Assembly (NCBI GenBank): GCA_963666835.2
Contig: CAXXGO010000006.1
Coordinates: 2,511,443 to 2,543,442 of the forward strand
Direction: 5' to 3'
Length of the DNA stretch: 32,000 bases
From: Phycisphaerae bacterium
Lineage (GTDB): Bacteria > Planctomycetota > Phycisphaerae > UBA1845
Part shown: one piece after another, positions 9,023-28,300 of the stretch
Numbering within the stretch: the first letter of the stretch is position 1
How the letters are laid out: the number at the start of each line of letters is the position of its first letter
Notes under the pieces: generated by a model
Database searches by the model: none
Told to the model about the DNA's origin: nothing
Seen by the model: the letters and a program-made list of their open reading frames with translations, nothing else
Made by a program: the position numbers and the translations under genes

Positions 9023-9053
9023 GTATGGTTCTGGTTGTAAGAAAGGAATCGAC

Positions 9054-9389: not shown

Positions 9390-9479
9390 AGAAGACCAGG
9401 GGCGAGTCGGACGATAGCGGCGCCGAGACCACGAGGGGCTCGTCGGCACGTTCCCGGATTGCCGGAGGATTGTAGGGCG

Positions 9480-9608
9480 TTGGACAACGTGGACGGAATC
9501 CTCGATTACGCGATCAGCCAAGAGGAACAGGCGGCTAAGTTCTACACGGAGCTTGCCGAGGAGCGGTTCGAGATCGAGTACGACGATTACGTGTTCGGGA
9601 ACGGGTAG
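9480..9608 (+). pseudogene. Possible remnant of a ferritin-like/rubrerythrin-family gene (first helix only)
   Basis: Translation LDNVDGILDYAISQEEQAAKFYTELAEERFEIEYDDYVFGNG* resembles the first helix of ferritin-like diiron proteins and then stops. It has only TTG/GTG starts and is in the same frame as the upstream gene, beyond that gene's TAG. Confidence 0.25.
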
Positions 9609-9631
9609 GCTGGAAGAGCGAGGAGCTGTAA

Positions 9632-10144
9632 ATGGTACGCGAGCAAAGCCAACTGGCGGAGGGATTGCTGAAAGCGGCGCAGGCTGAGCGGGACGGCCAT
9701 AGTTTCTACCACATGGCCGCCACCACCAGCGAGGATCCCAAGGCCAAAGACGTTTTCGCCCAATTGGCCGCGGAAGAGTTGGATCACATGAACTTCTTGA
9801 TCCGGCACTACGAGGCCGTGGTGAAGACGGGCAGTCCGGATCCGTCGGCGACCTTGGGAAAGCGGGTGGCGCTTACCGGAGCGTGGCCGATTTTCTCCGA
9901 GGGGATCAAGACGCGGCTGAAGGATGCTCATTACGAAATGAGCGCGCTGTCAATCGGCGTCCAGCTCGAGTTAGATGCCCAGAAGTTCTACCGCGAACTG
10001 GCAGGCCGTACGGATGAGCCGGCCGCGAAGAAGTTCCTGCTGGACCTGGCGGATTGGGAAGCGGAACACTATCAAGCGTTGCTTCGACAGCAGGAAGCGT
10101 TAAAAGAAGACTACTGGACCCAGAACGGCTTTACGGCGTTCTGA
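9632..10144 (+). CDS. Ferritin-like diiron protein, rubrerythrin family without rubredoxin domain (erythrin-like)
   Basis: Two half-domains, each with E...ExxH ligands (AQAERDGHSFY / AAEELDHMNFL and VQLELDAQKFY / DWEAEHYQAL). GAGGAG RBS 6 nt upstream of the ATG. Confidence 0.8.
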   Translation: MVREQSQLAEGLLKAAQAERDGHSFYHMAATTSEDPKAKDVFAQLAAEELDHMNFLIRHYEAVVKTGSPDPSATLGKRVALTGAWPIFSEGIKTRLKDAHYEMSALSIGVQLELDAQKFYRELAGRTDEPAAKKFLLDLADWEAEHYQALLRQQEALKEDYWTQNGFTAF

Positions 10145-10177
10145 CAGGAATATCAGGCCAACAACGAAGGAAGTAGC

Positions 10178-10753
10178 ATGGCAACACTCAAGGGAAGTCA
10201 AACCGAGAAGAACCTCCTGACGGCATTTGCGGGCGAATCGCAAGCCAGGAATCGTTACACGTACTTTGCCGGAAAGGCAAAGAAGGAAGGGTTCGTTCAG
10301 ATTGCGGATATCTTCGAAGAAACTGCGAACCAAGAGAAGGAACACGCCAAGCGGTTCTTCAAGTTCCTTGAAGGCGGAGACGTGGAGATTTCAGGGACGT
10401 TCCCGGCCGGGGTCATCGGTAGCACGGCCGAGAATCTCAAGGCGGCGGCGGCCGGGGAGCACGAGGAATGGGAGTGCATGTATCCGGAGTTCGCGGCGAC
10501 TGCGCGCAAAGAGGGCTTCGAGGCTATAGCAAAGGTGTTTGAGGCGGTTAGTGTAGCCGAGAAGCAGCACGAGAAGCGTTACCTTGATCTGCTGGCGAAC
10601 GTCGAGGCCGGGACGGTCTTCAAGAGGAAGGAAAAGGCCGTTTGGCGTTGCCGGAACTGTGGCTACCTCCACGAAGGTACCGAGGCTCCGGACACCTGTG
10701 CGGCGTGTGCCCATCCCCAGGCTCACTTCGAGCTGCTGGGGGAGAACTGGTAG
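10178..10753 (+). CDS. rbr: Rubrerythrin
   Basis: TEKNLLTAFAGESQARNRYTYFA, EKEHAKRF, GEHEEW, EKQHEKRY diiron motifs, plus a C-terminal rubredoxin domain (WRCRNCGY...CAACAHP). Confidence 0.92.
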   Translation: MATLKGSQTEKNLLTAFAGESQARNRYTYFAGKAKKEGFVQIADIFEETANQEKEHAKRFFKFLEGGDVEISGTFPAGVIGSTAENLKAAAAGEHEEWECMYPEFAATARKEGFEAIAKVFEAVSVAEKQHEKRYLDLLANVEAGTVFKRKEKAVWRCRNCGYLHEGTEAPDTCAACAHPQAHFELLGENW

Positions 10754-11013: not shown

Positions 11014-11967
11014 GTGGACCAAGACCCCAAGATGAAGATTGGAGCGCGCAAACGCGGTACTTTGCGACAACCAGGGACGTTCTGTCCAATCCACTCAGAT
11101 GTACCGGCCCTATTCTCGCTTGGCTTTCAGGTGACTTACGTCCTTGGACTATGGACATTGGAACTGGGTAACCGGGGGTGGCCACGGTGGCTTGCTGCGG
11201 TTCTTCCGGACTGGTTTCCAGGACCGGCGGTCCTCCTGTTTCTGATGCCATCCATTGCGATCTTTGCGGCAGGAGTTTCACTTATCTGGACGGAACGCAG
11301 AAGCCCTCGCGAGCAGGCGGCGTTTTCTGCCACTCCGAGGATCTGTCGGGTAGCAGCGATAGGGTCAATCGTATTGTGGATCGACTTGCTCTGGCGGACA
11401 CGCTGGCACCTTTGCGAACTACCTTGGTTACTCGTCACGTGCTTCGCGACCTTACCGATGATGCCGTTGGTCGATCGTCCGTTCCGTAGCTTCCGTCGCT
11501 GGCGTGCTGGGAGATGTATGCGATGTGACCACGAGCTTTCTGCTAGGTCGCTCGCTTGCAGTACGTGCGGTCTCACAAATGCTGCAGGGAGTCCAGAGGA
11601 AGTATGTCCGGTACATTGGCTGCCCGCGACGATGACTCTAGCCTCGTCTGTCGTCGTGGCCATTCCCGTGCTTGGATTCCACGTTTTTCGAGCCGCACAC
11701 GGAATCCGCCCGATCGAGCTTTTCGATGCCTCGCGAAGGGTCACACCCGGCTCAGCCGCGAGTCGCTTTGTTGAGTCTGGACTGCTCATAGGGCTTATAG
11801 TTCCCTGGGTCGCGTGTGTAGTGGGAGTCTGTTCCGTCATCGTTATAGGCGTCGCGGTCATACGAAAGGACGGACGTGCCGGACGGTCTGCCGCAATAGC
11901 CATTGCGTTGAGCTGCCTGGCTGGCCTAATGGCATACCAAACGGGTATGGCGATCCGTGGGACTTAG
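11014..11967 (+). CDS. Hypothetical polytopic membrane protein with embedded CxxC-N11-CxxC zinc ribbon
   Basis: At least six hydrophobic segments and a cytoplasmic-looking loop, RCMRCDHELSARSLACSTCG (11515-11571). A 255-aa antisense ORF overlaps, so the strand call rests on the TM-helix pattern. The start is uncertain (GTG 11014 or ATG 11032). Confidence 0.5.
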   Translation: MDQDPKMKIGARKRGTLRQPGTFCPIHSDVPALFSLGFQVTYVLGLWTLELGNRGWPRWLAAVLPDWFPGPAVLLFLMPSIAIFAAGVSLIWTERRSPREQAAFSATPRICRVAAIGSIVLWIDLLWRTRWHLCELPWLLVTCFATLPMMPLVDRPFRSFRRWRAGRCMRCDHELSARSLACSTCGLTNAAGSPEEVCPVHWLPATMTLASSVVVAIPVLGFHVFRAAHGIRPIELFDASRRVTPGSAASRFVESGLLIGLIVPWVACVVGVCSVIVIGVAVIRKDGRAGRSAAIAIALSCLAGLMAYQTGMAIRGT

Positions 11968-12153
11968 TACGGTAGGCCGGTCGGGCTTGGCTGATCATCG
12001 GCTCCCCCACGTCCAGCGGGGGTGCCATTGAACGGCCCGCGGAGGCGCGCAGCGCACGGCAAAGACAAAAGGACGCGGGCCACCCGGCGTTGGGCAGAGC
12101 CCACCCTACTTGGCTTTGTCCTTGACATGCTTCAGCCCTTTGTCTGTCACCGC

Positions 12154-12726
12154 TTAAAGATCATCCGCCACGTGCCAGTCGACGGCGTCGGTCTCGCACG
12201 TGATCGCGGCCACGTGGCTGTTGTGGAAGAAGTGCTCTACGGGCCAGGTCTGCCCTTTGTATTGCAGGGTCATGCGCGACGAGTTCGTGACCTCGACCAG
12301 GCGGCACGCGGAGAGCCCGGCGACCCCGGTTCCATTCGCCTTGAGGACGGCCTCCTTCGCCGTCCACAGGCGGAAGAAGGTCGGCCAGGATCGCCCCCGC
12401 AGCATATCCCATTCTTCCGGGGAAGCGGCGGCATCCATGATGGCTTCGTTACGCCGGGGGGCGACGTGCTCGATGTCGATGCCCACCGGGCGGTCGGCGA
12501 TTACCGCGGCCGCCCACAGACGCTTGTGCGTGATTGACCAATACCAGCCGTCTTGCGGAAGGGGGGCGCCGGCGGCGTTTTTCTTCCAGCCGTTCTGCGG
12601 TGCTCCGCAGAGCCGGGCGCATTCTCGCAAGGCCGCGCGCGCGCTGGCCTGTTGTTGTTTGACTTGGTCAGGGATGCGAGTGCCTTCGCGCTGGGGGATC
12701 GGGGTGAGTACCGGGCGCAGGATCAT
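12154..12726 (-). CDS. 4'-phosphopantetheinyl transferase (Sfp/AcpT type)
   Basis: GIDIEHV Mg-binding motif and [12 protein letters not shown] (W/FxxKEAxxK) motif. Its ATG overlaps the upstream stop codon (ATGA at 12723-12726). Confidence 0.85.
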
Positions 12727-13544
12727 GGCGATTCGGTCGGCCAGATGCCGGCGAGAGTGTGCTTGACGACGTCGGCGTCGAAGTAGTTCGTCTCCATACC
12801 GGCGTCCACCACAATACCCTGGGCATTGATGCCGCTAGATCGCTCGCTCAGCAGAAACAACGCCGTGTTGGCCACTTCGTCCGTATCCAATCCGCGCTTG
12901 CGCAGCGTGACGTGCTCCGCGTACATGTAGTTGTCGATATACCCGGGGATGCCGGCCGAGGCGCTGGTCTTGAGCAAGCCCGCCCGCACCCCGTTAAAAC
13001 GAACCTCGGAGAACCGACTGAACGACTTCGCCAGAAAGGCCAGTGACGAGTCCAACGCCGCCTTGGCCGGAGCCATATATCCGTAGCTCTCCACGGCCAT
13101 CCGCGTGGTCGAGATGGAAATGGTCACCACGCTGCCGCGGCGGTCGAGCAGATCTCGAAAGGCGTTGGCTACGGCAATGAGCGAGTAACAGCTTACCGAT
13201 ACGCATTGCAGGAAATCTTCGCGGCGCACCTCATGGAATTTGCCGGAAAACGATTCGTAGTTGGCGAACGCGATTGAGTGGACGATGCCGTCGATTTTCT
13301 GGTGCTTCCGGCCGACCGCTTCTGCCAAGGCGGCAATCTGTTCGTCCTGCTCGACGTCGCACACGTGGACCTCGCGGCCGGGCAGCAGCTTGCTTGACTC
13401 CTCTCGGCGGGTCTCGTTGCGGACCCCGTATACGACCCTGGCGCCTTCTTCTTCCAAGAGCCGGGCGACGCGATAGGCCACGCTGCGCTTGTTGGCCACG
13501 CCCAATACGAGGTATGTTTTGTCGGTCAGATTAAGATAACTCAC
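12723..13544 (-). CDS. Enoyl-ACP reductase, FabI-like SDR
   Basis: N-terminal [16 protein letters not shown] (FabI-type glycine motif with SIA-like triplet) and a Y-x6-K catalytic pattern ([12 protein letters not shown]). GTGA start/stop overlap with the upstream gene. Confidence 0.8.
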
Positions 13545-13979
13545 GCCGACGGTTCCTCCGCCTCAGCTTGCGTACAAGTGAACGTGACGCGAAGGGCCAA
13601 CTTATCTTCAACGGTAACCCTGCCCGTGAGAAAGAACGCGTTCTGCAGTTCGTCGTCGAGCGTCACCTCGACCCGGAGCATCTGCCCGGGACGTACGATC
13701 TGCCGAAAGCGGGCGTCGCGAATCCGCGTGAGGACCGGGACCCCGGCCGTGGGATCGTATCCGCCGAGTCGATGCGCGATCAGCAGGGCTCCAGCCTGAA
13801 AGCAGCACTCGCAGACCAAGACCCCCGGCATCACCGGGTGCCCGGGATAGTGCCCCGTGAAGAAATCGGCTTTCGGGTCGGCGAGCGTTGTCGTGACGAT
13901 GCGGTCGTCAGTGACTTCCACGATGTCGTCAACAAAAAGAAACGGAGGGCGGTGGGGGATCGAAGAAACGCTTAATATG

Positions 13980-13987
<8 letters not shown>
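13541..13987 (-). CDS. 3-hydroxyacyl-ACP dehydratase, FabZ-like hotdog fold
   Basis: [32 protein letters not shown] (catalytic His and Glu context). 8-nt overlap with the upstream gene. Confidence 0.85.
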
Positions 13988-15422
<1,435 letters not shown>

Positions 15423-15431
15423 AATCGTCGA

Positions 15432-16871
15432 TCACGAATCCGAAAGTACGTGCAAGTTCGCCACAGTTATTCCGCTCAGCATCGCCCCGATGATACCGAG
15501 AAACCCCTGGTCCGTCCCGCAGATGAAGAGATTTTCGTACTGCGTCCGTCCGTCACGGATCTTGCGAGGGGAGCCGTATACCGCACCGCTAATGTGTCCG
15601 GTAAACCGCTCAATGGTCCGCGGCGTGAACATGTCCCAGTCTACCACGTGTTCCCGGAAACGCGGGAGGTACGCCTCGGCGCGTTCGATTGCCTTGGCGA
15701 AGCAGGCCTGCTTCATCGCTACGTAGGTGTCGGCGTCGGCATCCATCCACGGGGCGAAGTCGGCCAGCCATGTGAGCCTGACGATACCCTCGGCCAGGTG
15801 CTTGTGCCGATCATAGTTATTCGGGCAGCACAACACGCCGCTGCGCAGGTCGACCGGTTCGCGGGGCCGGGCATAGTGGAACTTCTCGCTATCGTTGAAG
15901 AAGACAATCGCGGCCTCGTGCCCCAGGTCGGCCGGCGTGCGATCCAGAATGCAGATCGTCTCGACAAACGATACGGCGCCCGTGTCCGGCAGATCCGGCG
16001 TTACTCCGTTTTCTTGGCAGATCTGCATGGTTTCGTAGTGGCCGGCGGAGGAGATTACGATATCTGCAGTTAGTTGCTCGCCGGAATCCAGAGTCAGTCC
16101 CGCCACCCGGTTATTGCGGATTTCGAGCCCCGCGACCCCGTCGCCGATGCGTAGCTCGCCTTTGCAGCTTCGGTATTTCTTCACCAGCGCTCGGATGATT
16201 GCCCTGACTCCGCCGCGGGGGCGGGCGAACCCCTCGAAGAAGAGGCTCTTGAACATGGTCACGAACTGCGTGAAGTCCATGTCGTGCTCCTCCGCGTTGC
16301 CGTAGTACATGACAGGGCAGAGGAGCATCTCGATAAGCTGTGGATCATGGAGGGACTCGCGCATCGCCGAACGGGCTGAGTGGTGCGGCTGATCGAGCCG
16401 AGTATCTTCGAACTCGGCTACGTCCGCCAGAAACCGGCGGAAACGGTCAATCTCCTGCGGGAACTCCTCTGCAACCTGCGCGGTGAGAACGGCGATGTCG
16501 TTTGTGAACCGCAATCGCCGTCCGGGGAACGATACCTCGGAGTAACGCTGCTCCGCCAGGTCCAGCTCGTTGCGCGACAGACGCAGTTGTCGCAGCAGCT
16601 TTGCGAGCGGAGTCTGCCGTTTCCCCGCGGGTACAAAGTTGGTCAAGGCGTGAAGCCCGACATCGAACTCACGCCCGCCGCGCTTGTAGTAGGAGTTCAG
16701 GCCGCCGACGGCGTGATGTCGCTCGACCACGCAGACCCGGTAGTCGTAGTAGGCCAGCCGGATGCCCGCAGCGAGCCCTGACATGCCCGCGCCGATAATG
16801 ACCACGTCATAGTGCATGCGTTTATGCAGGTCTGTCCCGCGGAGCTGCCCGATAGTCGGGCGGCAGGACAA
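15432..16871 (-). CDS. FAD-dependent oxidoreductase, phytoene-desaturase (CrtI/amine-oxidase) family, copy A
   Basis: YDVVIIGAGMSGLAAGIRLAYYDYRVCVVERHHAVGGL and C-terminal FICGTDQGFLGIIGAMLSG. The track start is TTG 16871; ATG 16817 (MHYDVVIIGAG) is a plausible alternative. Confidence 0.8.
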   Translation of the reverse strand: MSCRPTIGQLRGTDLHKRMHYDVVIIGAGMSGLAAGIRLAYYDYRVCVVERHHAVGGLNSYYKRGGREFDVGLHALTNFVPAGKRQTPLAKLLRQLRLSRNELDLAEQRYSEVSFPGRRLRFTNDIAVLTAQVAEEFPQEIDRFRRFLADVAEFEDTRLDQPHHSARSAMRESLHDPQLIEMLLCPVMYYGNAEEHDMDFTQFVTMFKSLFFEGFARPRGGVRAIIRALVKKYRSCKGELRIGDGVAGLEIRNNRVAGLTLDSGEQLTADIVISSAGHYETMQICQENGVTPDLPDTGAVSFVETICILDRTPADLGHEAAIVFFNDSEKFHYARPREPVDLRSGVLCCPNNYDRHKHLAEGIVRLTWLADFAPWMDADADTYVAMKQACFAKAIERAEAYLPRFREHVVDWDMFTPRTIERFTGHISGAVYGSPRKIRDGRTQYENLFICGTDQGFLGIIGAMLSGITVANLHVLSDS

Positions 16872-16896
16872 GGCACCAGACCCCGGCGATCATTGG

Positions 16897-17196
16897 TCAG
16901 AGTGCGGCGACCGCCTGCAGTTTCGGAGTGAGGTACTCAACGCACCCGTCAAGCGTCGCGAGCTGCGTGTAGTCTTCCTTAGGAACCTCGACTTTGTAGC
17001 GCTTACGTAGCTCCATGACAATATCGAGAAAATCCATGGAATCCATGTCGAGCTGATCGCGCAAACGCACATCGCTCTTGACGCTGGAAAGATCGGCATC
17101 GGGCGCAACCAGCTCGATGATGTCCAGAACGATCTTCTTGACCTGCTCTACGGTACTGTTCTTGAAACTTGCGTTCATCTGTCTCACACGTAACAA
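16897..17196 (-). CDS. Acyl carrier protein (pathway-dedicated)
   Basis: Phosphopantetheine attachment motif LDMDSMDFLDIVMEL; size and acidic helices are typical of ACPs. The track start is TTG 17196; ATG 17178 is an alternative. Confidence 0.85.
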   Translation of the reverse strand: MLRVRQMNASFKNSTVEQVKKIVLDIIELVAPDADLSSVKSDVRLRDQLDMDSMDFLDIVMELRKRYKVEVPKEDYTQLATLDGCVEYLTPKLQAVAAL

Positions 17197-17205
17197 CGGC
17201 CAACG

Positions 17206-18444
17206 CTACACGGGGTATCGCCTGACTACCACGGCCGAGTTGGTCCCCAACATCCCGAACGAGTTGTTCAAGATGTGATCCACCCGGCCAACCTGTTTGG
17301 ACTCATTCAGCACCAAATTCCGCATCGCACACTTGGGGTCGAGATTCGTGACGTTGATCGTCGGATGCACTACGCCGTCCTCGAACGAACCCAAGTTCCC
17401 CGCCAACTCCAGGGCACCGGCCGCGCCCATTGCGTGGCCGATGTAGCTTTTCGTGTTATTAATCGCAACCCCCGGGAAGTCCCCAAAAACCTCGCGGGTT
17501 GCTCGTACCTCTAACTCGTCACCGGTCTCGGTCGCCGTTGCGTGCGTGCTCACGATACCGACGTCTTGCGGCTCGATCCCCGCCCGGGCAACGGCCAACT
17601 TCATACATTCGGCAATGCGCTCCGGGTCCGGCTGCACCGGATCGCGCGCATCCGAATTCATCGCATAGCCGATAATCTCGGCTATGATGGTCGCTCCGCG
17701 CCGCTTGGCATCCTTCAGCCTCTCAAGTACGTACAGGCACCCCCCTTCGGAGACCACGATTCCGTTCCGGTTCTTGTCGAACGGGCGGGACGCTTTAATC
17801 GGGTCCTCATGCCGCGCGAGAGCGTTCTGGCTCGCGAAGCTGGCGAAGATCCCGAACGAGCCGATTGCCTCGGATACTCCGCCGGCCACGGCAAGGTCGA
17901 CCTCGCCAAGCCGCAGCATCTGCACGCCCTGAATCAGCCCCGCGTTGCCCGCTGCACAAGCCGCGCCGATTGTATAGTGCGGGCCGCAAAAGCCCAAGTT
18001 CATCGTCACCTCCCCGGCGGGGTTGTTGGCCACCGTTCGGGGATTGTGGTGATGCGACCAGTATTTGGTGTCATAGTCGTACTGGCGGATGACGTCAATC
18101 TCGTTCTCGGTTTCCACCGTGCCGTGCTCGGTGATGCCGATGAACGTGCCCACACGGGAGAGATCCACGCCGGCGACGTCTATTTTCGCTCGGTTCAAGG
18201 CCTCGTGGGCGCAGTAGATGGAAATCGCCCCGGCTCGGGTTCCGCGCCGCCGCTCCCGGCGCGGTTGGTACTTCGTCTCGTCGAAATGGCACACTCCGGC
18301 GTGCACCTGCCCCATAAAGCGGGTCTCGATGTTGGTTATGCCGGATACCCCGTTCAGCAGGTTCCGCCGAAACGCCTCAAGCGTGTCGCCGTTGGGGGAC
18401 GTTAGCCCCACGCCAGTAATGACGATTCGCTCTGAGTTCGACAT
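17206..18444 (-). CDS. Beta-ketoacyl-ACP synthase (FabF/KAS II-like, catalytically complete)
   Basis: RIVITGVGLTSPNG; active-site Cys in IGAACAAG; His motifs STHATATETGD and SYIGHAMGAAG. Confidence 0.9.
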   Translation of the reverse strand: MSNSERIVITGVGLTSPNGDTLEAFRRNLLNGVSGITNIETRFMGQVHAGVCHFDETKYQPRRERRRGTRAGAISIYCAHEALNRAKIDVAGVDLSRVGTFIGITEHGTVETENEIDVIRQYDYDTKYWSHHHNPRTVANNPAGEVTMNLGFCGPHYTIGAACAAGNAGLIQGVQMLRLGEVDLAVAGGVSEAIGSFGIFASFASQNALARHEDPIKASRPFDKNRNGIVVSEGGCLYVLERLKDAKRRGATIIAEIIGYAMNSDARDPVQPDPERIAECMKLAVARAGIEPQDVGIVSTHATATETGDELEVRATREVFGDFPGVAINNTKSYIGHAMGAAGALELAGNLGSFEDGVVHPTINVTNLDPKCAMRNLVLNESKQVGRVDHILNNSFGMLGTNSAVVVRRYPV

Positions 18445-18600
18445 TTACACCGTGCCTAGGGAAAACTCCACGCTCCGACGCGACTGCGCACCGTACCATG
18501 CTGTAAGGCGGTGGATGTTAGCAGATTCACTAGAAACATGAAACGGAGCAACTTCTCGGGGGGTTGGTCTTTCCAGTACGATTCTCCCGGGATCCGCCAG

Positions 18601-19590
18601 TCAATCACGTCTCAGCGAACGAATCAGCTTCGCCAAGCCCTCTGATGTCGAAACCCGTGGCTCATAACCGAAATCAGCCCTGGCCGCGGAAATATTAAAG
18701 TAGTGCGAATAGGCAAGCTGGGAGGCAAGGAATCGCGTCATGCGAGGTTCCCTTGATGGGCAAAATGCCCGGTGGATCAACTCAAACGCTGCTCCTAGGC
18801 GCCGGGCTGCGTTGTACGAAATCGTTCGTTCGACCGGCGGAATGCCCAGCTCCGCGAGGATGCCGTTTAGCCAGGGCCAGAGCTTCACCGGTTCGCCCTG
18901 GCTTATGAAGTAAGCCCGGCCCGCGCAAGCTGCTTTGGGGGTCAGAGCGTCCGCCGCCCGGAGGTGGGCCTCTGCGGCATTATCGATGAAGGTTATGTCG
19001 ACCAGGTTCTCGCCGTCTCCGACGATTCTAAGTTGGCCCCGGCGGGCGCGATCGATCACCCGCGGGATCAAATGAGGGTCGCCGGGACCCCAGATCAGGT
19101 GCGGACGAAGGGCGATTGTGCTCAGCGCGGCACTGTTGGCGGCCAGGACCATCCGCTCGGCCGCAGCTTTCGTTTCCGGATAGTCGGCCAGGTACTGTTG
19201 CGGGTAAGGCTGCGACTCGTCCACGCCGCAGAGGGGGCTTTCTCCGAACACGACACTGGGAGTACTCGTGTGGACTAGCCGGGATACTCCGGCGTTCTTG
19301 CACGCATCAATGACGTTTCGCGTGCCGACGACGTTGATGTCTTGGAATATCTTGCGCCGGCCCCAGATTCCGGGTATGGCGGCCACATGGAAGACCGTTT
19401 CCATTCCTTCGCAGGCCTGACGGATTGCCGTGGACTCCCGAATATCGGTTTGGATTGTCCGTATCCCGGCCTGCTCGTGATGGGGGTACGCCCGTCTCCC
19501 CAGCACGGTGACCTCGTCGCCCCGTTCTTTGAGCAGTTGGGCGATACGGCTGCCGAGAAAACCACCTCCGCCGGTGATCAGGGCCTTCAT
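18601..19590 (-). CDS. Extended SDR, NAD-dependent epimerase / 3-beta-hydroxysteroid dehydrogenase family (OleD-like)
   Basis: MKALITGGGGFLGSRIA Rossmann motif, catalytic YPETK (YxxxK), LRPHLIWGPGD, AYFISQGEP. ATG 19590 overlaps the upstream TGA (ATGA). The track ORF starts at 19611. Confidence 0.8.
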   Translation of the reverse strand: MKALITGGGGFLGSRIAQLLKERGDEVTVLGRRAYPHHEQAGIRTIQTDIRESTAIRQACEGMETVFHVAAIPGIWGRRKIFQDINVVGTRNVIDACKNAGVSRLVHTSTPSVVFGESPLCGVDESQPYPQQYLADYPETKAAAERMVLAANSAALSTIALRPHLIWGPGDPHLIPRVIDRARRGQLRIVGDGENLVDITFIDNAAEAHLRAADALTPKAACAGRAYFISQGEPVKLWPWLNGILAELGIPPVERTISYNAARRLGAAFELIHRAFCPSREPRMTRFLASQLAYSHYFNISAARADFGYEPRVSTSEGLAKLIRSLRRD

Positions 19591-21278
19591 GGGGCTTGCC
19601 TCTCTGCCCAATCCGCAAGTTGCTCGCGGTTGATCTTCGTGTTGTGACGGATGTCCACGGGAAGCGAGCGGTGCAAGAGCACTCGGGTGATACTACGCGT
19701 CAACTCGTTTCCGCGGGCCAGCTCCAGGAGTTCCTCTTGCAGCTTCCGTCCTCGGCCTCCCTTGAGATCAGTGGGCGATTTGGGTTCCACCACGATGACC
19801 GGGCTCTGTGCTCCGGGCGGTCCGACCCCTACCAGGGCTGATCGGGAAACCTGACGATGTTCGTTGAAGATTGCCTCACACGGTACCGTGAACATCGGGC
19901 CGTGTGACGTTTGTACTCGATGCCCCTTCCGGCCGCAGAACCAGATTCGCCCCTGTTTGTCGCGATAACCTAAGTCCCCGATCCGGTGCCAGATTCGTTC
20001 GCCGTCGCGGATCTTGGCCAGGGCGGTGGCATTCGGAAGCCCAAAGTACTCTTTGGTTACCACGGGGCCTGACACTACGATCTCGCCGATCTCGCCGTCG
20101 GGAACAAGTAGGTTACTAGACCATTCGGCGATCGGCTGGTCGGTTACGGTGATCACTCGCAGGTCGATCTCCGGCATCGTGGTTCCCACACAGGTTCCGG
20201 CTCCCGTCCGGGTCTTATCGGTGCAGCCTCCCAGGACCTCTCGACCGCTGATCGACGACACTGGGAGGGATTCGGTTGCTCCGTAGGGGGTGTGAACGTC
20301 TGCCTCGTCGCGGAGCATGTCGTGAAGCTGCCTGATGACGGGGTACGGCACGGGGGCTCCGGCAATCAGAATCCGGCGCAGGCTCGGTAGTCTTACGTTG
20401 TGATCCGTCCCATAGGCTGCCACCCTCCTCCAAAGTGCAGGGGATCCGAACGTGTTCGTCACCCGGTGGTCCAGGATCGGCCCGATGATCTTGGCAGGAT
20501 CAACCTTAGCCGGATGGGCGGGGTCCATGTCCGGGATCACGGTCGTCATGCCCATTGCGATGCTAAAGAGCCCGAAAAGCGGGAAGGTCGGCAGGTCGGT
20601 CTCTCCCGGCTCAATGCCGTAACGCTGCTGAATCTGCCGGACCTGTGCTCCGAACATGCCGTGCTCGTATACCACACCCTTCGCCGGGCCGGTGCTTCCT
20701 GAGGTGAACAGGATCGCGGCCGTCTCATCAGCCGCCGTATCGACCGTGGCGAAATCCGGGGCGGCGGTCCGAGCGAGTCCTGTCAGAGTCGGACCACCCC
20801 AAAACCAGCGACGCCCGACCGTGATTACGCAGCGGACCGATCGAAAGGGACCGGGTCGAAGCACCCGCATGGCGTGGGCCAAGGGTATCCCGATGAAGCC
20901 GTGAAGATCCACCCCGCGGATACACTCCATCATCCGCCCGATGCCCATGCCCGGGTCAATCAGCACCGGGACGGCACCCATCTTGAACAGCGCGAAGATC
21001 AGCCCCATGAAGTCGATCCCCGGCCGGACCATAACCAGAACCCGCATTCCGCGAGCCAGCCCGGCCGCGATCATTCCGTTGGCGAACCGGTTCGAGAGAG
21101 CCTCGAGTTCGGCGAACGTGATCGACCGGTAGACCGCGCGGCCGTTACCTTCGTACGACGACGTCACGACTACGGCGGGGTGATCCGGGACCTTCCGCGC
21201 CATTTGAGGAAGGTGCGACGCGATGTTAAACCGCTCCGGCGAATCGTGGGTGCTCGAATGATCGGGTGCCGTGGTCAA
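19587..21278 (-). CDS. AMP-dependent synthetase/ligase (ANL superfamily; OleC / fatty-acid-CoA-ligase-like)
   Basis: ILFTSGSTGPAKGVV (A3 core), PYGATE (A5), FALFKMGAVPVLIDPGMG. TTG start at 21278 with GAGGA 6 nt upstream. First gene of the operon. Confidence 0.85.
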   Translation of the reverse strand: MTTAPDHSSTHDSPERFNIASHLPQMARKVPDHPAVVVTSSYEGNGRAVYRSITFAELEALSNRFANGMIAAGLARGMRVLVMVRPGIDFMGLIFALFKMGAVPVLIDPGMGIGRMMECIRGVDLHGFIGIPLAHAMRVLRPGPFRSVRCVITVGRRWFWGGPTLTGLARTAAPDFATVDTAADETAAILFTSGSTGPAKGVVYEHGMFGAQVRQIQQRYGIEPGETDLPTFPLFGLFSIAMGMTTVIPDMDPAHPAKVDPAKIIGPILDHRVTNTFGSPALWRRVAAYGTDHNVRLPSLRRILIAGAPVPYPVIRQLHDMLRDEADVHTPYGATESLPVSSISGREVLGGCTDKTRTGAGTCVGTTMPEIDLRVITVTDQPIAEWSSNLLVPDGEIGEIVVSGPVVTKEYFGLPNATALAKIRDGERIWHRIGDLGYRDKQGRIWFCGRKGHRVQTSHGPMFTVPCEAIFNEHRQVSRSALVGVGPPGAQSPVIVVEPKSPTDLKGGRGRKLQEELLELARGNELTRSITRVLLHRSLPVDIRHNTKINREQLADWAERQAP

Positions 21279-21520
21279 TGCGAATCCTCAACGGATGCTC
21301 TTCACAGGCGCGTCGTTGGCCGGTACGTTCACTATACTGACCCGCCAGGAGGGTGTCGACGTTTCGTGGGATGGTCCCCGGTGTCCGACGTAACCCTGTG
21401 AGAACATGGGCGATGCGGGATCGGGTGTTGCCACTGCTTCTGAGCAGTGCAGGGACGGGGCAGGGTGTGGATTGGCCCCGGGCCTTTACGTGTGGCGATG
21501 TACGAGTGCTTGCGCTTATC

Positions 21521-22981
21521 ATGGCTAGATGTTCTTCTCGTTTGCGAATCGTCTTCTTCGGTTCTGGAATCCTGTGTTTGGCGGTTGTACGCCCGGCGCT
21601 GGGGCAGCAGAGTCTTGCGGCGCAACTTAGGGCCACGCTGGCCTCGCCGCCGCACGGGCAGACCGTTGCTGGGGTGTGTGTGGTTGATCTGGACACCGGC
21701 GGCAGCGTCTTCGAGCGAAACGCGGACCGGCCGATGGTCCCGGCCAGCAACATGAAGGTGTTCGTGATGGTCGCCGCTCTGACGGAGCTGGGTCCCGGTT
21801 TTGCTTTCGATACCGTCTTCGCGACCGATCGCACCCACATCTACTTGATCGGTGACGGCGATCCTTCTCTGGGGGACGAGAAGCTCTGCCAAGGTCGAGG
21901 AGAGCCTCCGACAGCCTTATTCGAGCGTTGGGCGGATGCGCTTCGTGCCGAGGGCATGCCGGAGGTGCCCGGTGATCTCGTTTTCGATGAATCCGTGTTC
22001 GATGACCAGTACGTCAACGCGACGTGGGAGGAAGTCGATCTCGACAACTGGTTTGCCGCACCGGTAGGGGGGCTCAACTTCAACGACAATTGCGTGGACA
22101 TAACGGTGACTCCGCCGAGCCGTTTGGGGGCTCTGGTGTCGGTTGCGATTCGGCCGGAGTGCTCGATAGTCAAAGTCGTCAATGAGTGTCGGGCAGGAAG
22201 ATCGGGTACGCCGGTTCTGCGCCACCGGCACGATTCCTTCGAATACCGCATAAGCGAGCGTTGTCCGAAGCGTTGGACGTTCGGGCCCGTCTCGTTCCCG
22301 GATCCGGGTTTGCTCACGGCCGACGCCTTCCGCACGACGCTGCGCAGGAAAGGGATCGCCTGTCACGGTACGCTGAAACGTCAGCGCGTTCGTCGAGCCG
22401 ACGGCAGTATTCCCGCCACGTTGACGGTGCTCGATCACCATCGCACGCCCATTGCAGAAGTGTTGCGTCGAACGGGGAAGGACAGCCAAAACGTCTTTGC
22501 GGAGGCTCTGCTCAAACGGACCGGGTACGCCTGGGCTCAGCGACGCGGACTCCCGGTGCCGCAAGGAAGTTGGGCGATGGGGAGCCGGGCGATCCTCGAC
22601 GTGATGGAAGTTGCCGGGGTGAACGTGGAGGGCCTGGCGATTGCCGACGGGTCGGGGCTCAGCCGGGCGAATCGTTGCACCGCGCGGCAGTTGACCAGCA
22701 CGTTGTCGTGGATGGCTACGCAACCCGGAGCGCGGCTGTTTCTTGAGAGCCTCTCTATTGCCGGGGTTGACGGCTCCTTGCGAAAGCGGCTGAAAGACGT
22801 TCCGGACCGGGTCTTCGGCAAGACGGGTACGATGCGCGGAATCCGCACGTTAAGCGGGTACGTCGAATCCACCAGCGGTCGCCGGTTCGCCTTCGCCGTG
22901 CTGTTCAATGGCTACCCCGGTCCGAGCACCCCATACCGCGAGATCCAAGACCGCATCTGCCGTATCCTGATCGGCGCGTGA
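21521..22981 (+). CDS. dacB: D-alanyl-D-alanine carboxypeptidase/endopeptidase, PBP4 (peptidase S13) family
   Basis: SxxK (PASNMKVFV), DGSGLSR and KTG (GKTGTMRG) motifs. Signal-peptide-like start MARCSSRLRIVFFGSGILCLAVV at ATG 21521. The track ORF starts at 21353. Confidence 0.85.
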   Translation: MARCSSRLRIVFFGSGILCLAVVRPALGQQSLAAQLRATLASPPHGQTVAGVCVVDLDTGGSVFERNADRPMVPASNMKVFVMVAALTELGPGFAFDTVFATDRTHIYLIGDGDPSLGDEKLCQGRGEPPTALFERWADALRAEGMPEVPGDLVFDESVFDDQYVNATWEEVDLDNWFAAPVGGLNFNDNCVDITVTPPSRLGALVSVAIRPECSIVKVVNECRAGRSGTPVLRHRHDSFEYRISERCPKRWTFGPVSFPDPGLLTADAFRTTLRRKGIACHGTLKRQRVRRADGSIPATLTVLDHHRTPIAEVLRRTGKDSQNVFAEALLKRTGYAWAQRRGLPVPQGSWAMGSRAILDVMEVAGVNVEGLAIADGSGLSRANRCTARQLTSTLSWMATQPGARLFLESLSIAGVDGSLRKRLKDVPDRVFGKTGTMRGIRTLSGYVESTSGRRFAFAVLFNGYPGPSTPYREIQDRICRILIGA

Positions 22982-23631: not shown

Positions 23632-23916
23632 CGAACTACCTCCGATCGATGTAGACACTGTCCAATTCCGATTCCGTTGGCTCCATAGCATACGCGGCGC
23701 TGTGCGGCCGTGCCAGTGTCCGGAATCGAATACGGTACGCGGGACGTCTTCGCTTTCGACGGACCTTACGCTCGGGCGCGGCTTGCCTGCGTACGGCTAA
23801 GAGGTTGCCGCGTGAATATGGGCGGGTCACTTGCGGGGGGATGGGAGATATGGCGGCTCTGCTCGCGCGTAGATACAATCGTCTGGAAGATCACCAGATA
23901 CTCGAGGGCCGGAATA

Positions 23917-24891
23917 ATGGCAGAAGTGCACGAGGATGCGGTGGCGCTAACCGCGTGTGGGTGGGTCACTCCGTTTGCGGTGGGGGGCATTACTGAGGTG
24001 CTGTCTGCCGGACCCAGCGCTGAACTGCAGAAGGACGAGAACGGGACATACTCGGCTGTCAGTGGTTTGGATGACACCGTTTCGGGTCTTTCGACGGAGG
24101 TGAAGCGGGACCACGGGGCGCTAATGGCTGCGGTCGCGCTGGAGTTAGCCCGCCGTGGCGCCAAACTGACCGCCGAAGACTACTCGGCAGAGCGAACCGG
24201 CCTGGTGTTGGGTGTCGCGCTGGCGGGGCAGATGGGCATGATTAAGTTCGCCGAAGAGGTGCGTCAGCAGACGGCTCGCTTCGTGACGCCGATCCACTTC
24301 CCGCAGACTGTCGGCAACTACATCTCCGGAGCTCTGGCACGCGCCTACGGGATTCGCGGTCCCAACTCGACGATTGCCGGGGGTGTTGCTTCGGGGCTGG
24401 ATGCCATCAAAGAGGCGGCGAGGTTGCTGGCCGATGGCGAAGCCGACGTCGTGTTGGCCGGTGGAGTCGAGCAGCTTTCGGAGGAGTTGGCTGCCGGGCT
24501 GGCCCAGCCTGGTACGCGGCTGAGCGAAGGGGTCTGCCTCTTCGTTTTGGAGCGTACTCGCCATGTGCAAAACAGGGGCGGAACGATTTTGGCTACATTG
24601 GCCGGGGATGAAGACGCGGACAAGGCTGTCATCCATGCGACTGCGGGGTTCGTTGAAGATGGGGCGATAGCGATCGGGCAGTGGGTCGGTGACTGCCTGG
24701 GAGCCCTCAGTGCCGCTGCGGTGGCGGCGTCGATTGGCGCCGCGGAAGGGGCTCGAGTCCCGTTTGCGAAGTCAGCGGGGGCATTCGAAGTCAAGGCGGT
24801 AACCGGTGACGACGGCGCCGTTGCGACTCCGGGTGTCGTCTCGGCGAACGGCCTCGGCGATTCGCGCTCAAGTCTCTTTCTCGTAATCTGA
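23917..24891 (+). CDS. Beta-ketoacyl synthase N-terminal-like protein lacking the catalytic Cys (chain-length-factor-like)
   Basis: Thiolase-fold pattern (TGLVLGVALAG..., HFPQTVGNYISGALARAYGIRGPNSTIAGGVASGLDAIKEAARLLADGEADVVLAGGVE). GGVASG stands where KS enzymes have ACxSG, and the C-terminal His motifs are degenerate. The start is uncertain (23917, 23818 or 23710). Confidence 0.65.
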   Translation: MAEVHEDAVALTACGWVTPFAVGGITEVLSAGPSAELQKDENGTYSAVSGLDDTVSGLSTEVKRDHGALMAAVALELARRGAKLTAEDYSAERTGLVLGVALAGQMGMIKFAEEVRQQTARFVTPIHFPQTVGNYISGALARAYGIRGPNSTIAGGVASGLDAIKEAARLLADGEADVVLAGGVEQLSEELAAGLAQPGTRLSEGVCLFVLERTRHVQNRGGTILATLAGDEDADKAVIHATAGFVEDGAIAIGQWVGDCLGALSAAAVAASIGAAEGARVPFAKSAGAFEVKAVTGDDGAVATPGVVSANGLGDSRSSLFLVI

Positions 24892-25053: not shown

Positions 25054-25391
25054 TTCTTAGTCCAATAAGCAGTGCGGGGCCGTTTTGCAGATCATGATGG
25101 CTTCGGACGGGCAATTCGTGCGGAGCGGCAGGACGGCGGGTCCGTCGGTCGCGCGGTGCAGTTGTTGCAGATGGTGCGATTCTACCAACTCACGAAGGGG
25201 TCTTGCTTGGAATCGGTTCGTTTAGCGGGCCGGCCGGGTGGTGCCGGCCAGCCGTAGGTTGTAGCGAACATATAGGTCAATCGCGGGCGTCGGCGTCTTA
25301 CGGAGGGGGGAGACGCCGGCAACCGGCGACCAGCGTGGGAATCGGGCAAGCCACGCCAACTCAAAAGACCGGTCAGGTCAAGGAGAGAGTC

Positions 25392-28300
25392 ATGATTGCG
25401 GCACATGGGAATCGAGTGATGCACGGAAAGGTACGGCTATTGCGGTGGTTAGCGATTCCAGCGATTGTTGGAATCGTGGGTCTGCTGGGGGCCGTTCCGG
25501 CGGCGGCAACGGATGTGCTGCCGGGCTCCGATTTGTTCCTCAGTCCGGCCCCGCCCGGGGGACTGGCGGGGGCTACTTACGATGACCTTGGCAACAGCCC
25601 TTTACCCGCGGATTTCTTCGGGCCCGGGTCGGATCCGTTCGACGGAGTTATCCACCTCGAGGGTCTGCCGTTTTCGGTGGCCGGACCGTTGGGGTTCGAG
25701 ACGGCTGACACGATCGTGGAGCGACTGACTACGGCCGTACTACCCGATGACTACACGAGCGAAGATACCGTGGATACGGTGATGGTGGCGTTGAGTTTGG
25801 CAAGCACCTCGCCGATTACCGTCACTTTCGACGGCGGGCCGGACACGTCGCTGTATGACGTCCAAGTATGCCTGTCGAGCTTCACCCCCCAGCCGGGGGG
25901 ATGGATGACAATACGGCATCTCTGCCCGGAGGGGGGTAAGTTCGAGTCGTTAACGCCGGTGATTCCGCGACTGATCTTCACCAAGGTGTCGGGCAGTTCA
26001 GGCGTATCCAACGCTGTTTTGGATCCTGCTCCGCAATTGGATTTCGTTGTAACGGACGGGTGTTGGGCGCACTCCGCCCCGGTGAGTTTTGGCGTCTACA
26101 AGACAATCGGGGGCGTGGCGGACCATGATTGCGATGGGGTTTTCGACGCTTATTACCCGGCATCCAGCCCCGATCCGAACGGCTTCGTCGTGGGCGTGTG
26201 CATGTTGCCCTGTGATGACAGCGGTACGACGCCCGAACCGCGCAAGCGGATGACTGTCGAGGAGCAGCTCTGGGCGTCACACGGGATTCTTCCGGCGGAG
26301 GAGGAAGGGCTGGATACAGAGGGCGACGGCGTACATGATTTGGGTGATAATTGCCCGGAGGACTTCAATCCGCTGCAGACCGACAGTGACAACGATACCG
26401 TCGGCGACGATTGCGACAATTGCGTAGACGACTACAACCCCTTCCAGGAGGATACCGACGAGGACGGCATCGGCGATGCGTGCGACATTGGCCCGTACGA
26501 CGTCCTGCCGGGGTACGATCTCTGGGTGACGCCCGACGAGGGTTCGTATCTCGAGTTTGGGGGAAGTACGCCCAACCCGCCTATTCCTGCCGACTACTTC
26601 TGGCCGGGCTCGGACCCGTTTGAGGGAGTAATAAACCTCGTCGGGGATCCGATCTTCCCCGCATTATACGGCGATGTTTCTACGATTGTGGAGCGACTCG
26701 AGCGCGCGATTCTGCCGGATCCCATCGGCTCGTCGGATACGATAGACACGCAGCTTACAGGGCTCCAGCTCCGCAGTGCCGCGCCGATTACGGTTACGGG
26801 AGTGGGCGGTCCCGGGGAATACGATGTCATGATCTCGTTGGACCCGGGCATTCCGTCTACCGGGCAGATGACCATCCACCACGAGACGATCGAAGGCGGC
26901 ACGTACGACGGCGTGTCATTCCAGGTGTACGTACAACTGGATTTCATGGCCCTGAGTGGTCCCGGTGGGGACGTCACCGCTCCACCTGAGTATCCGTACC
27001 TGCTGGAGGGGATTGGGCCATACGGTTGGCAGCATGATCCCCCGTTTGAACCGCAGTTGCCCGGTGCCGGGCCGAACTTCTTCCCGATCGATCCGATGAG
27101 TGACCTGACTCTGTACTGGCCCTACGGTCCGCCGTGGGAGCAGGTAGGGGCGCATGGCGTTATCCCACCGCCTTTCCCCGATGGTTGCTGTCTGTCTGAT
27201 GGAGTGTGCGTGAACGTCGACCCGACCGACTGCGTGATTATGGGGGGTACTCCCCAAGGGGCGCTTTGCACCGGTGAGACGGAGGCCTGCTGCTTCGTCG
27301 CGGACGGAAGTGGAACATGTCTGGACGTCGACCCGCTGTGTTGTGATGACTTGGGCGGGGTTGCTCAGGGAGCCGGATCGTTCTGCGCGAATTCGACGGT
27401 GGCCTGTTGCCTGCCGGAGGGCGGTTGTGTTGATGCGGACGCGACGTGCTGTGATGCCCTGGGTGGAGTCCCCTCGCCGTACGGCCACGCGTTCTGTCTG
27501 GGGGATAATGACGAGCCGCCCAACGGGATCGATGACGCTTGCGAACCGGAACCACAACCGGAGCAAGCCTGTTGCCTGCCGGACGCAACGTGTGCGGATG
27601 TGACTCACGACTCCTGCGTTGCGCAGTTCGGCGACCCACAGGGCCCGGGTACGACTTGCGATGACGTTTCGGTGGTCTGCCATCCGCTCAAATGGTCGCA
27701 GCCACCGACGTTCAACTCCGACTCACCCGTTCCGGAGTGCTTCTGGGGTTGGGACGAAGTGTCGTATTATGGTCAGGCCGATTGGCCGATAGTGGCGGAC
27801 GATTGGGTTTGTATTGGTCCGGAGCCCGTGGCGGACATCCACTGGTGGGGGTCGTATCTTAACTGGGATGAAGCGGTTCCTCCGGCGGACGCACCATTTT
27901 TCTTCTACATTGGAATCTGGGCGGATGACTCGAGCGGACTGTTCGGTCATCCGGGAGATTTAGTGTGGCAGTGGGTAGCGGCTCGAACATCTCTCAATGA
28001 AAGAGCGGTGGCCTGCGATTTCCATCCCGATTTCCTGACTGCGCCGGAGAGTTGTTTCAAGTATGACCTGGATATCCCGGAGGCTGAGTGGTTCTATCAG
28101 GCCGGTGGGGCAACCGTCTATTGGTTGAGCATCTCGGCGGCGGATATGCCGGGAGCCCACCCGTGGGGCTGGAAGACGCGCGAGCATTACTTCGGAGATG
28201 ACGCCGTGCGGATCGTCGATCCGGTTGCGCCGGGGATCGGAGATGCGTATGTAGCCGGTGAGCCGATCGAGGACGGCGGAGGGGCTACGTGGGATATGGC

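Follow-up and report, generated by a model that had tools for sequence, protein, structure and literature searches.

The textbook pathway by which bacteria make long-chain olefins and β-lactones is that of the ole genes, and we know of no dedicated acyl supplier for it other than the Pfa synthase. Here we describe a 32,000-nucleotide stretch of genomic DNA from a Phycisphaerae bacterium (contig CAXXGO010000006.1; hereafter "the window"), in which genes for a ligase and a short-chain dehydrogenase/reductase (SDR), an OleC/OleD pair by sequence criteria, adjoin a cassette resembling a fatty acid synthase (FAS) of type II, and whose oleA and oleB counterparts lie elsewhere in the same species. 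In described systems, OleA carries out a head-to-head condensation of two acyl chains, OleD reduces the resulting keto acid, OleC closes a β-lactone, and decarboxylation of the lactone by OleB yields a cis-olefin (PMC7158056, PMC7064751). A survey of OleA contexts reported oleABCD with zero to three intervening genes, oleBC fusions and oleACD clusters (PMC7064751), and ole genes have been reported from Proteobacteria, Planctomycetes, Verrucomicrobia, Chloroflexi and Actinobacteria (PMC7158056). Neither of these two papers mentions a split into oleAB and oleCD-plus-cassette, the cassette itself, or an occurrence in Gemmatimonadota or Muiribacteriota.

Two further groups of systems are relevant to the cassette. 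The Pfa synthase of Shewanella and Photobacterium provides a 16:4 chain that OleA probably takes directly from the acyl carrier protein (ACP) domains of Pfa, and pfa and ole operons can adjoin (PMC6463001). Besides, both anammox bacteria and Desulfotalea encode CrtI-like flavoproteins within type II FAS clusters; these were proposed to be anaerobic acyl desaturases, and Desulfotalea makes C31:8 and C31:9 hydrocarbons (PMC2649909).

In the window, two open reading frames on the minus strand, both verified, encode the ligase (19587-21278; 563 aa, TTG start) and the SDR (18601-19590; 329 aa from its ATG). The ligase stop and the SDR start share an ATGA at 19590-19587 (...CCC ATG A AG...). In 3' direction of the SDR gene follow genes for a β-ketoacyl-ACP synthase (KS), an ACP, two CrtI-family flavoproteins (here CrtA and CrtB), FabZ, FabI and an Sfp-type phosphopantetheinyl transferase (PPTase), closely packed from KS to PPTase with overlaps of 4-8 bp or small gaps; an S13 peptidase gene lies divergently upstream. 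The features are:

19587-21278, minus strand: oleC orthologue of the ANL superfamily, predicted β-lactone synthetase, 563 aa, TTG start (PF00501, NF006754, conserved columns, tree)
18601-19590, minus strand: oleD orthologue encoding an extended SDR of 329 aa, predicted to be an NADPH-dependent 2-alkyl-3-oxoalkanoate reductase (PF01073, OleD models, conserved columns)
17206-18444, minus strand: FabF-type β-ketoacyl-ACP synthase, 412 aa, Cys-His-His intact (PF00109/PF02801)
16897-17196, minus strand: dedicated acyl carrier protein, DSM serine motif (PF00550)
15432-16871, minus strand: CrtI/amine-oxidase-family FAD protein A (CrtA), 479 aa (PF01593)
13980-15422, minus strand: CrtI/amine-oxidase-family FAD protein B (CrtB), 480 aa (PF01593)
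13541-13987, minus strand: FabZ-type (ApeI-like) 3-hydroxyacyl-ACP dehydratase, 148 aa, 8-bp overlap with the CrtB gene (PF07977)
12723-13544, minus strand: FabI-type enoyl-ACP reductase, 273 aa, overlapping fabZ by 4 bp (PF13561)
12154-12726, minus strand: Sfp-type 4'-phosphopantetheinyl transferase, 190 aa, overlapping fabI by 4 bp (PF01648)

This layout bears out what had been read from the DNA alone. The original prediction had described an overlapping OleC-like/OleD-like pair of these sizes, followed by a FabF-type KS with its own ACP, and had found OleA and OleB absent from the window. The reading frames, the ATGA and the Pfam matches of KS and ACP all agree with it, the peptide strings on which it had relied (FALFKMGAVPVLIDPGMG, LRPHLIWGPGD and YFISQGEP) are all present in the window ligase and SDR, and tblastn returned no OleA or OleB homologue from the whole 32 kb. 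The window thus does not hold a contiguous oleABCD operon, that is, four genes with zero to three intervening ones. Full-text literature yielded no description of an association between the cassette and ole genes; many subscription papers were outside reach, so an earlier mention of split ole genes is possible. What appears to be new is the placement of oleCD beside the cassette and apart from oleAB; the two proteins themselves are ordinary further members of the OleC and OleD families.

Identity of the ligase and the SDR

As in the canonical oleABCD systems of Xanthomonas campestris, Stenotrophomonas and Micrococcus, oleC and oleD adjoin each other in the window; their order agrees, and so do the conserved columns. 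Conserved columns were defined as those at least 95% conserved among proteins of contiguous oleABCD loci; the ligase retains 107 of 110 of them, its three changes being conservative, and the SDR 54 of 55. The mean identity of the ligase to ligases of oleABCD loci is 48.8% (45-52%), compared with 52.1% among those ligases themselves (5th percentile 42.7%). For the SDR the corresponding means are 48.4% and 50.3%. The ANL motifs TSGSTGPAKG, YGATE, GDLGYRD and GRKGHRV and the lysine of a C-terminal HNTKINR could be read in the ligase, whose TTG start is required to cover the conserved residues N18 to A27, and the Rossmann motif GGGGFLG, TSTPS and YPETK (YxxxK) in the SDR, in keeping with a Ser/Tyr/Lys catalytic set.

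Genomic context agrees with this. A scan for homologues of the ligase, with one genome per species, returned 80 loci from many phyla (45-64% identity), and the open reading frames of the scanned loci were clustered by all-against-all BLAST. The most frequent arrangement was a FabH-like protein of the OleA family (NF006720/PRK09258), a haloalkane-dehalogenase-like hydrolase of OleB type, the ligase and the SDR, i.e. oleABCD. Since the SDR gene directly follows the ligase gene in 58 of 83 homologous loci, again from many phyla, their adjacency is not a matter of chance. In a neighbour-joining tree, the clade of the window ligase (L001-L006, L010) falls within a star-like OleC radiation, beside clades with full oleABCD.

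Model scores were less telling. The ligase matches PF00501 (1.6e-51) and passes NF006754/PRK09274 of NCBIfam (712 bits, cut-off 478); against the OleC models NF045786 (595 bits, cut-off 900) and NF045785 (539 bits, cut-off 850) it stays below the cut-offs. The SDR, which is of the 3-beta-HSD type, matches PF01073 (1.9e-53) and reaches 398 and 377 bits with the OleD models NF042422 and NF042423, both below the cut-off of 580, its next-best NCBIfam model being HpnA with only 125 bits. We tried these equivalog cut-offs as a test of membership and dropped them, because OleC proteins from contiguous oleABCD loci likewise fall short of NF045786/NF045785 (688/674 bits in L042, the locus of Geomonas limicola; 586/524 in L128; 546/534 in L015), all three passing NF006754 as the window ligase does, and so do the OleD proteins of the same loci (447/416, 382/359 and 333/337 bits). 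The cut-offs are therefore clade-specific and do not discriminate. Searches of PDB sequences with the ligase, the SDR and both flavoproteins returned no OleC or OleD entry, only remote ANL, epimerase and CrtI relatives, and gave no help with function.

By columns, identity, tree position and synteny, the window pair is indistinguishable from the pairs of contiguous oleABCD loci, and we classify the two proteins as OleC and OleD orthologues. The original prediction had called them OleC-like and OleD-like and had proposed a phylogeny as a check on the ligase; the identification can now be put more strongly than "like", and the tree nests the ligase inside the OleC radiation. In all likelihood, the pair has the predicted activities of OleC and OleD within a pathway whose genes are split.

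Two observations concern OleC relatives outside oleABCD loci. The ligase–SDR pair of a Lysobacterales metagenome-assembled genome (L072, 9935-12699) carries strings near-identical to the three peptide strings named above; it is an oleC–oleD pair without adjoining oleA or oleB, with peptide ABC-transporter genes upstream. The order in which the pathway was characterised thus has split ole loci, too. Besides, eight Nitrospinota loci (L011, L019, L024, L025, L031, L044, L045, L049) form a separate clade of OleC-like ligases (46-53% identity) in a different context: OleD, OleA and OleB are all missing from the neighbourhood, and upstream there invariably stand two HtrA-like protease genes and a recurrent set of small conserved open reading frames.

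Location of oleA and oleB

The absence of OleA and OleB holds for the window, not for the organism. In the nearest complete genome, that of a Phycisphaerales bacterium (CP070744; ligase 69% identical), the same operon is present, also with no adjoining oleA or oleB. A search with the OleB of L002 found a homologue on its 5.67-Mb chromosome; the source genome of the window was not among the 120 matches listed. The oleA–oleB pair of CP070744 lies at 3.27 Mb and the oleCD-KS operon at 4.45 Mb, 1.17 Mb apart. This megabase-scale separation of oleAB from oleCD is what sets the system apart from canonical oleABCD.

The species of the window itself has oleAB as well. Contig_123 of the ENA assembly ERZ21869600 (L085) carries oleA–oleB, its OleA (P0252) being 78% identical to the CP070744 OleA used as query. 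The same assembly holds the exact ligase protein of the window, on a contig with 99.08% DNA identity to the window, and the tetranucleotide correlation of L085 with the window (0.982) exceeds that of the window halves with each other (0.967), with all other loci below L085. OleA and OleB are thus encoded together in the nearest complete genome and in a population assembly 99% identical to the window. As in canonical oleABCD systems, both proteins have their catalytic residues. The L085 OleA has Glu98-x25-Cys124, His276 and Asn306, a spacing that matches that of the Xanthomonas OleA set (Glu117/Cys143/His285/Asn315), and the L085 OleB carries the nucleophile motif HDWGG.

The surroundings of oleAB hint at how the split arose. 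Its neighbours in L085 (M10 peptidase, UvrD/PDDEXK helicase, PutA) are homologous to the genes directly upstream of oleB-oleC-oleD-KS in L002, with 52-65% amino-acid identity in tblastx segments and inverted orientation. From these shared neighbours, the simplest inference would be a single ancestral ole locus that was broken up by rearrangement.

The original prediction had suggested searching for oleA and oleB beyond the window. The search found them in the same-species assembly and in CP070744. At the level of the genome, the claim of an OleC/OleD pair without OleA or OleB has accordingly to be given up. A canonical oleABCD locus elsewhere, to which the pair would be unrelated, had been named as a refuting finding; no such contiguous locus was seen in the data covered (the source genome was not wholly searched). 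Only oleAB lies elsewhere, and the window oleCD pair is therefore its likely partner. Thus, calling OleC/OleD "without OleA/OleB" from one window is unsafe, and genome mining that demands contiguous oleABCD overlooks split systems such as this one.

The presence of OleB also bears on the product. The oleACD-type clusters of lipstatin (LstABCD) and nocardiolactone (NltABCD) have homologous OleC-type β-lactone synthetases and OleD-type reductases, yet they are without OleB and release the β-lactone (10.1101/856955). With an OleB encoded beside OleA in the species of the window, the end product to be expected is an olefin.

A conserved cassette linked to ole genes

What comes after oleCD is no substitute for OleA and OleB; KS, ACP, flavoproteins, FabZ, FabI and PPTase make up a self-contained set of type II FAS kind. 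Several of them score below the cut-offs of their family models. The KS scores 313 bits with the fabF model (cut-off 494), and the motifs GAACAAG, STHATAT and KSYIGH could be read. FabZ reaches 99 bits with the fabZ model, below its cut-off, with catalytic His and Glu motifs in place (relatives are additionally annotated PF22818), and FabI at most 194 bits with the FabI models, again below the cut-offs, with its Y-x6-K motif. CrtA and CrtB are paralogous, with ~24% identity to each other. Their best scores are 84 and 108 bits with TIGR02730 (cut-off 587) and 73 and 86 bits with TIGR02734 (cut-off 238); CrtA has only weak matches, to carotenoid isomerase and CrtD models, and its closest PDB relatives, 3KA7 and CrtI (4DGK), are both remote. 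Judged from these scores, which stay below the family-level cut-offs, CrtA and CrtB are assigned to the superfamily of carotenoid desaturases and isomerases (CrtI, CrtD, CrtISO) and to no family within it.

The cassette recurs in other genomes. The order KS-ACP-CrtA-CrtB-FabZ-FabI follows oleCD in the window and, in the species-genome scan, in L001, L002 (where oleB precedes) and L004. In the Gemmatimonadota locus L034 it is the same as far as FabZ, with a FabG-like gene inserted. The Muiribacteriota locus L015 has full oleABCD and then KS-ACP-CrtA up to the contig end, and L128, a locus of the metagenome scan, has oleA-oleB-oleC-oleD-KS-ACP-CrtA-CrtB-FabG-FabZ-FabI...PPT in one run. Among the proteins of cassette loci, CrtB is the best conserved (66-82% identity); the KS shows 60-78% identity, the ACP is conserved after the KS, and a PPTase closes the cassette in L001, L004 and many metagenome loci. 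The CrtB family is narrow: a search of 1.84 billion proteins gave only 203 representatives with E <= 1e-30, and these are mostly fragments.

A metagenome scan seeded with the CrtB alignment gave 80 further loci, among them 29 informative cassettes, i.e. those with a KS and usable upstream sequence. Ole genes adjoin the cassette in 20 of the 29; a script had tallied 21 against 8, which we corrected to 20 against 9 because the "ligase" of L121 (26% identity, opposite strand) is not OleC. Directly upstream of the KS stands an oleA-like gene in 12 of these 20 loci; 8 have oleC and/or oleD. The 12 oleA-like proteins are 50-55% identical to the OleA of the window's species and conserve its Glu, Cys and His. 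In all cassettes, the flavoprotein genes lie between the ACP gene and the FabG/FabZ genes, with short gaps or overlaps. KS-ACP-CrtI-CrtI-[FabG]-FabZ-FabI-[PPT], with optional genes in brackets, is thus a conserved cassette that occurs in several phyla and is evolutionarily tied to ole genes.

Other arrangements were seen in the same surveys. In the nine informative cassettes without ole genes, the cassette core is the sole conserved part. Some CrtB-like genes stand alone (L126, L127, L134, L146, L154 and others); they are 66-68% identical to the window CrtB, fall among the cassette-embedded ones in the tree and have neither a cassette or ole gene within 10 kb nor conserved neighbours, one of them lying in a Planctomycete-like context (DUF1501). 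L096, L110, L111 and L115 have a duplicated unit, oleA-like - KS - ACP - oleA-like - KS, before CrtA-CrtB-FabG-FabZ-FabI-PPT, and their paired OleA-like proteins resemble the LstA/LstB and NltA/NltB heterodimers. Finally, in 16 of the 83 loci the gene directly upstream of oleA is a multidomain one of Pfa type (two KS-type domains and a FabA-like dehydratase); none of the surveyed loci has such a gene alongside the cassette.

As to transcription, the spacer between the pair and the KS gene measures 156 bp and contains a TGnTAACAT-like box that is conserved in relatives. Two promoter-like elements were noted:

18515-18523, minus strand: TGCTAACAT, candidate box resembling an extended -10 element, in the oleD-KS spacer and 71 nt ahead of the KS start codon (box conservation)
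21331-21359, minus strand: TCGACA-17-TATAGT, a site resembling a promoter, 53 nt ahead of the ligase start codon (position)

The first box recurs upstream of the KS start, in a similar place, in L001 (TGCTAACAT) and L004 (TGCTAGGAT), and L087, L094 and L161 carry TGGTAAGAT, TGGTAGGAT and AGGTAGGCT, respectively, at a similar distance; in L002, TGCTAAGAT lies farther upstream (~179 nt). The consensus across oleD-KS spacers, TGnTA(A/G)(C/G)AT, resembles an extended -10 element, and the spacer is merely 6-24 bp long in L114 and L128. The oleCD pair and the KS cassette may therefore be two transcription units rather than one operon. The second site is the sole sigma-70-like match in 11900-21600, where 2.5 would be expected by chance, and is suggestive by its position only. 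Scans for promoters and terminators gave counts not above shuffled expectation, and Rfam gave no match.

A split pathway with a proposed acyl supply of its own

Taken together, we favour a complete but physically split OleABCD pathway that is joined by a type II cassette supplying a special, probably unsaturated, acyl-ACP; as a whole, we hold this account to be more likely than not. OleA, encoded elsewhere in the genome, would condense two acyl chains, OleD would reduce the 2-alkyl-3-keto acid with NADPH, OleC would close the β-lactone at the expense of ATP, and OleB, also encoded elsewhere, would decarboxylate it to a long-chain cis-olefin. The cassette would build the special chain on its own carrier protein and pass it to OleA, and its two flavoproteins would, independently of oxygen, keep, move or newly introduce double bonds while the chain is ACP-bound; the ketoreductase (KR) step could be taken by a FabG of the cassette or by the housekeeping FabG. 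The parts of this account differ in strength. Orthology of the pair, the split of the ole genes and the conservation and ole linkage of the cassette are direct results; the path of the substrate, the flavoprotein chemistry and the product are proposals. Whether the cassette feeds OleA seems to us evenly balanced, and that the flavoproteins make the chain polyunsaturated is a tentative proposal and rather doubtful.

The idea of acyl supply comes from the Pfa synthases. Like the pfa-ole loci of Shewanella and Photobacterium, which lead to C31:9 from the Pfa-derived 16:4 chain, the window has a dedicated lipid synthase with its own carrier protein and PPTase beside ole genes. It is not a Pfa-type polyunsaturated fatty acid synthase: where Pfa has large multidomain PfaA/PfaC proteins with tandem ACPs, the cassette has separate type II proteins of one domain each, FabZ and FabI take the place of a FabA-type dehydratase (DH) and the enoyl reductase PfaD, and there are two CrtI-family flavoproteins that are not found in Pfa synthases. 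The likeness between the two (KS, ACP, an optional KR, DH, enoyl reductase, PPTase) is one of functional analogy only. By this analogy, the cassette could be a type II counterpart of Pfa; its parts match those of Pfa, and its flavoproteins would stand where Pfa has FabA-type dehydratase/isomerase domains, which is why we propose both a role in double bonds and a delivery to OleA. We place the supply at OleA, and not at a bypass around it, because in the 12 loci mentioned the KS is directly preceded by an oleA-like gene and the cassette follows oleABCD in L128 and L015. The original prediction had offered a new way of feeding an OleC/OleD module as one of two readings. This reading is half borne out: the cassette is evolutionarily linked to ole genes and probably supplies the pathway, and the evidence points to a delivery by way of OleA, not to a route around OleA and OleB.

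As for the flavoproteins, the anammox kuste3603-3608 cluster and the Desulfotalea psychrophila cluster resemble the window in combining KS, ACP, FabZ and a CrtI-family flavoprotein, and anammox bacteria belong to the Planctomycetota, as does the organism of the window. They differ from it in having radical SAM genes, a single flavoprotein and no ole genes reported beside them. The part of kuste3607 that could be compared, its first 128 residues, matches CrtB with 44% identity along 86 residues in the FAD-binding region, a similarity confined to generic regions and not orthologue-level. Flavin-dependent, oxygen-independent isomerisation or dehydrogenation of acyl chains is known from the polyenoic fatty acid isomerase of Propionibacterium acnes, which has an amine-oxidase fold, and from Helicobacter FabX; the comparison with the window flavoproteins is a mechanistic analogy only. 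A Fur-family regulator, a thiol peroxidase (Redoxin/AhpC-TSA), a rubredoxin-like-domain protein, a rubrerythrin-like protein and a rubrerythrin are encoded at 7580-10753 (plus strand) of the window. Such a set of oxidative-stress genes is typical of oxygen-sensitive bacteria and would suit an oxygen-sensitive lifestyle, in which unsaturation without oxygen would make sense.

Speculatively, the cassette might be a third, oxygen-independent route to polyunsaturated or polyene acyl chains, beside the oxygen-dependent desaturases and Pfa, with two CrtISO/CrtI-like flavoproteins that isomerise or dehydrogenate enoyl-ACP and a product destined for OleA; we consider this possible, if unlikely. If true, polyunsaturated long-chain hydrocarbons would be expected in anaerobic Planctomycetota, Gemmatimonadota and other uncultured lineages, and the cassette flavoproteins, as soluble and widely distributed relatives, would be a tractable model for the CrtI-like enzymes of the anammox "ladderane" clusters, which have long been suspected of a part in anammox lipid synthesis. 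A second supplier of the ole pathway would account for unusual hydrocarbons in lineages without Pfa and would add a flavoprotein-based, oxygen-independent chemistry of acyl-chain unsaturation.

Several points weigh against the favoured account. The oleAB contig stems from a 99%-identical population assembly and not from the window's own contig, and the source genome, which was not covered as a whole, may hold a second oleCD pair or a pfa cluster. The cassette contains a FabI, which would saturate the chain unless bypassed, and its Phycisphaerae version lacks a dedicated ketoreductase. The CrtI-like proteins of anammox bacteria failed to desaturate phytoene (PMC4790861). Besides, the flow of substrate from the cassette ACP to OleA is purely what we infer. 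The remaining points count at the same time for a different role of the cassette: ole genes are out of reach in 9 of the 29 informative cassettes, about 22 metagenome CrtB-like genes stand alone in unrelated contexts at the identities given above, and the box between oleD and the KS gene suggests a separate promoter and transcription of the cassette.

According to this different view, which leaves the pair as OleC and OleD, the cassette would not feed OleA; either its flavoproteins would desaturate the finished olefin beside the central double bond, or it would make an unrelated lipid or polyene. CrtI-family enzymes, as is generally known, normally act on long hydrocarbons with a central double bond, which would suit the former variant. 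On the other hand, the embedding of the flavoprotein genes between the ACP and FabG/FabZ genes is what one would expect for ACP-bound substrates, and a chance neighbourhood is hard to credit, given that linkage to ole genes was found in 20 of the 29 informative cassettes, across distant lineages and with oleA-like genes within the cassette order. We regard this alternative as unlikely, albeit the best of those that compete with supply to OleA.

The second reading of the original prediction, in which the pair would have no role in the Ole pathway, fares worse. Here, the ligase would load a starter acid onto the cassette ACP, and the SDR would stand in for the missing ketoreductase. The ANL superfamily, to which the ligase belongs, does include acyl-ACP ligases, and the Phycisphaerae-type cassette is without the FabG that other versions have. 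Among the 13 informative cassettes with OleD directly upstream, 10 are without FabG. Yet 3 have both, 8 of the cassettes have neither, and 8 have FabG and no adjoining OleD. With these counts (10, 3, 8, 8), the apparent complementarity of OleD and FabG is not significant (Fisher p = 0.25), and we discarded it as support for a surrogate ketoreductase. All 8 cassettes with FabG and no adjoining OleD have an oleA-like gene, and all 8 without FabG and OleD have no ole gene; this pattern may reflect a ketoreductase travelling with OleA-type condensation, or lineage structure. Of the 29 cassettes, 16 have no OleD, and hence no ligase–SDR pair, beside the KS. A changed substrate class would be expected to erode the canonical columns, which are kept at nearly every position (107/110 and 54/55), and the oleA and oleB of the species need an OleC/OleD partner. 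The starter-loading role is therefore improbable.

Least probable of all is a route independent of OleA and OleB, in which the KS would make an ACP-bound β-keto intermediate for reduction by the SDR and, after release, lactonisation by the ligase to a β-lactone or alkene: oleA and oleB are indeed missing from the window and from within 10 kb in L001 and L004, and oleACD-type clusters without oleB do give β-lactones (PMC7064751), but the species itself and the nearest complete genome both have an oleA–oleB pair elsewhere, in related loci oleB (L002) or oleA and oleB (L015, L128) directly precede the same gene order, and the Cys-His-His of the KS is that of an elongating, decarboxylating FabF, which gives an unbranched 3-ketoacyl-ACP and not the 2-alkyl-branched acid of OleD and OleC.

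Outside the split ole pathway and its cassette, the window holds a degenerate KS-like open reading frame (23710-24891, plus strand) with an N-terminal ketoacyl-synthase domain only (PF00109, 64 bits). Its active-site Cys is replaced (GPNSTIAGGVASG), its start is probably the Met at residue 70, and it is 25-30% identical to the cassette KS genes. We considered it as a chain-length-factor partner and dropped the idea, as no orthologue occurs in any of 160+ related loci. Further on, the 1391-aa product of 25203-29378 (plus strand) contains DUF7901 and matches the MYXO-CTERM cell-cohesion protein MtsC over a short stretch. Together with 6-809 and 4128-5519 (both plus strand), it belongs to a group of large secreted-type proteins, including an FG-GAP repeat protein and a GEVED-domain protein, that are typical Planctomycetota surface proteins with no evident tie to the lipid genes.

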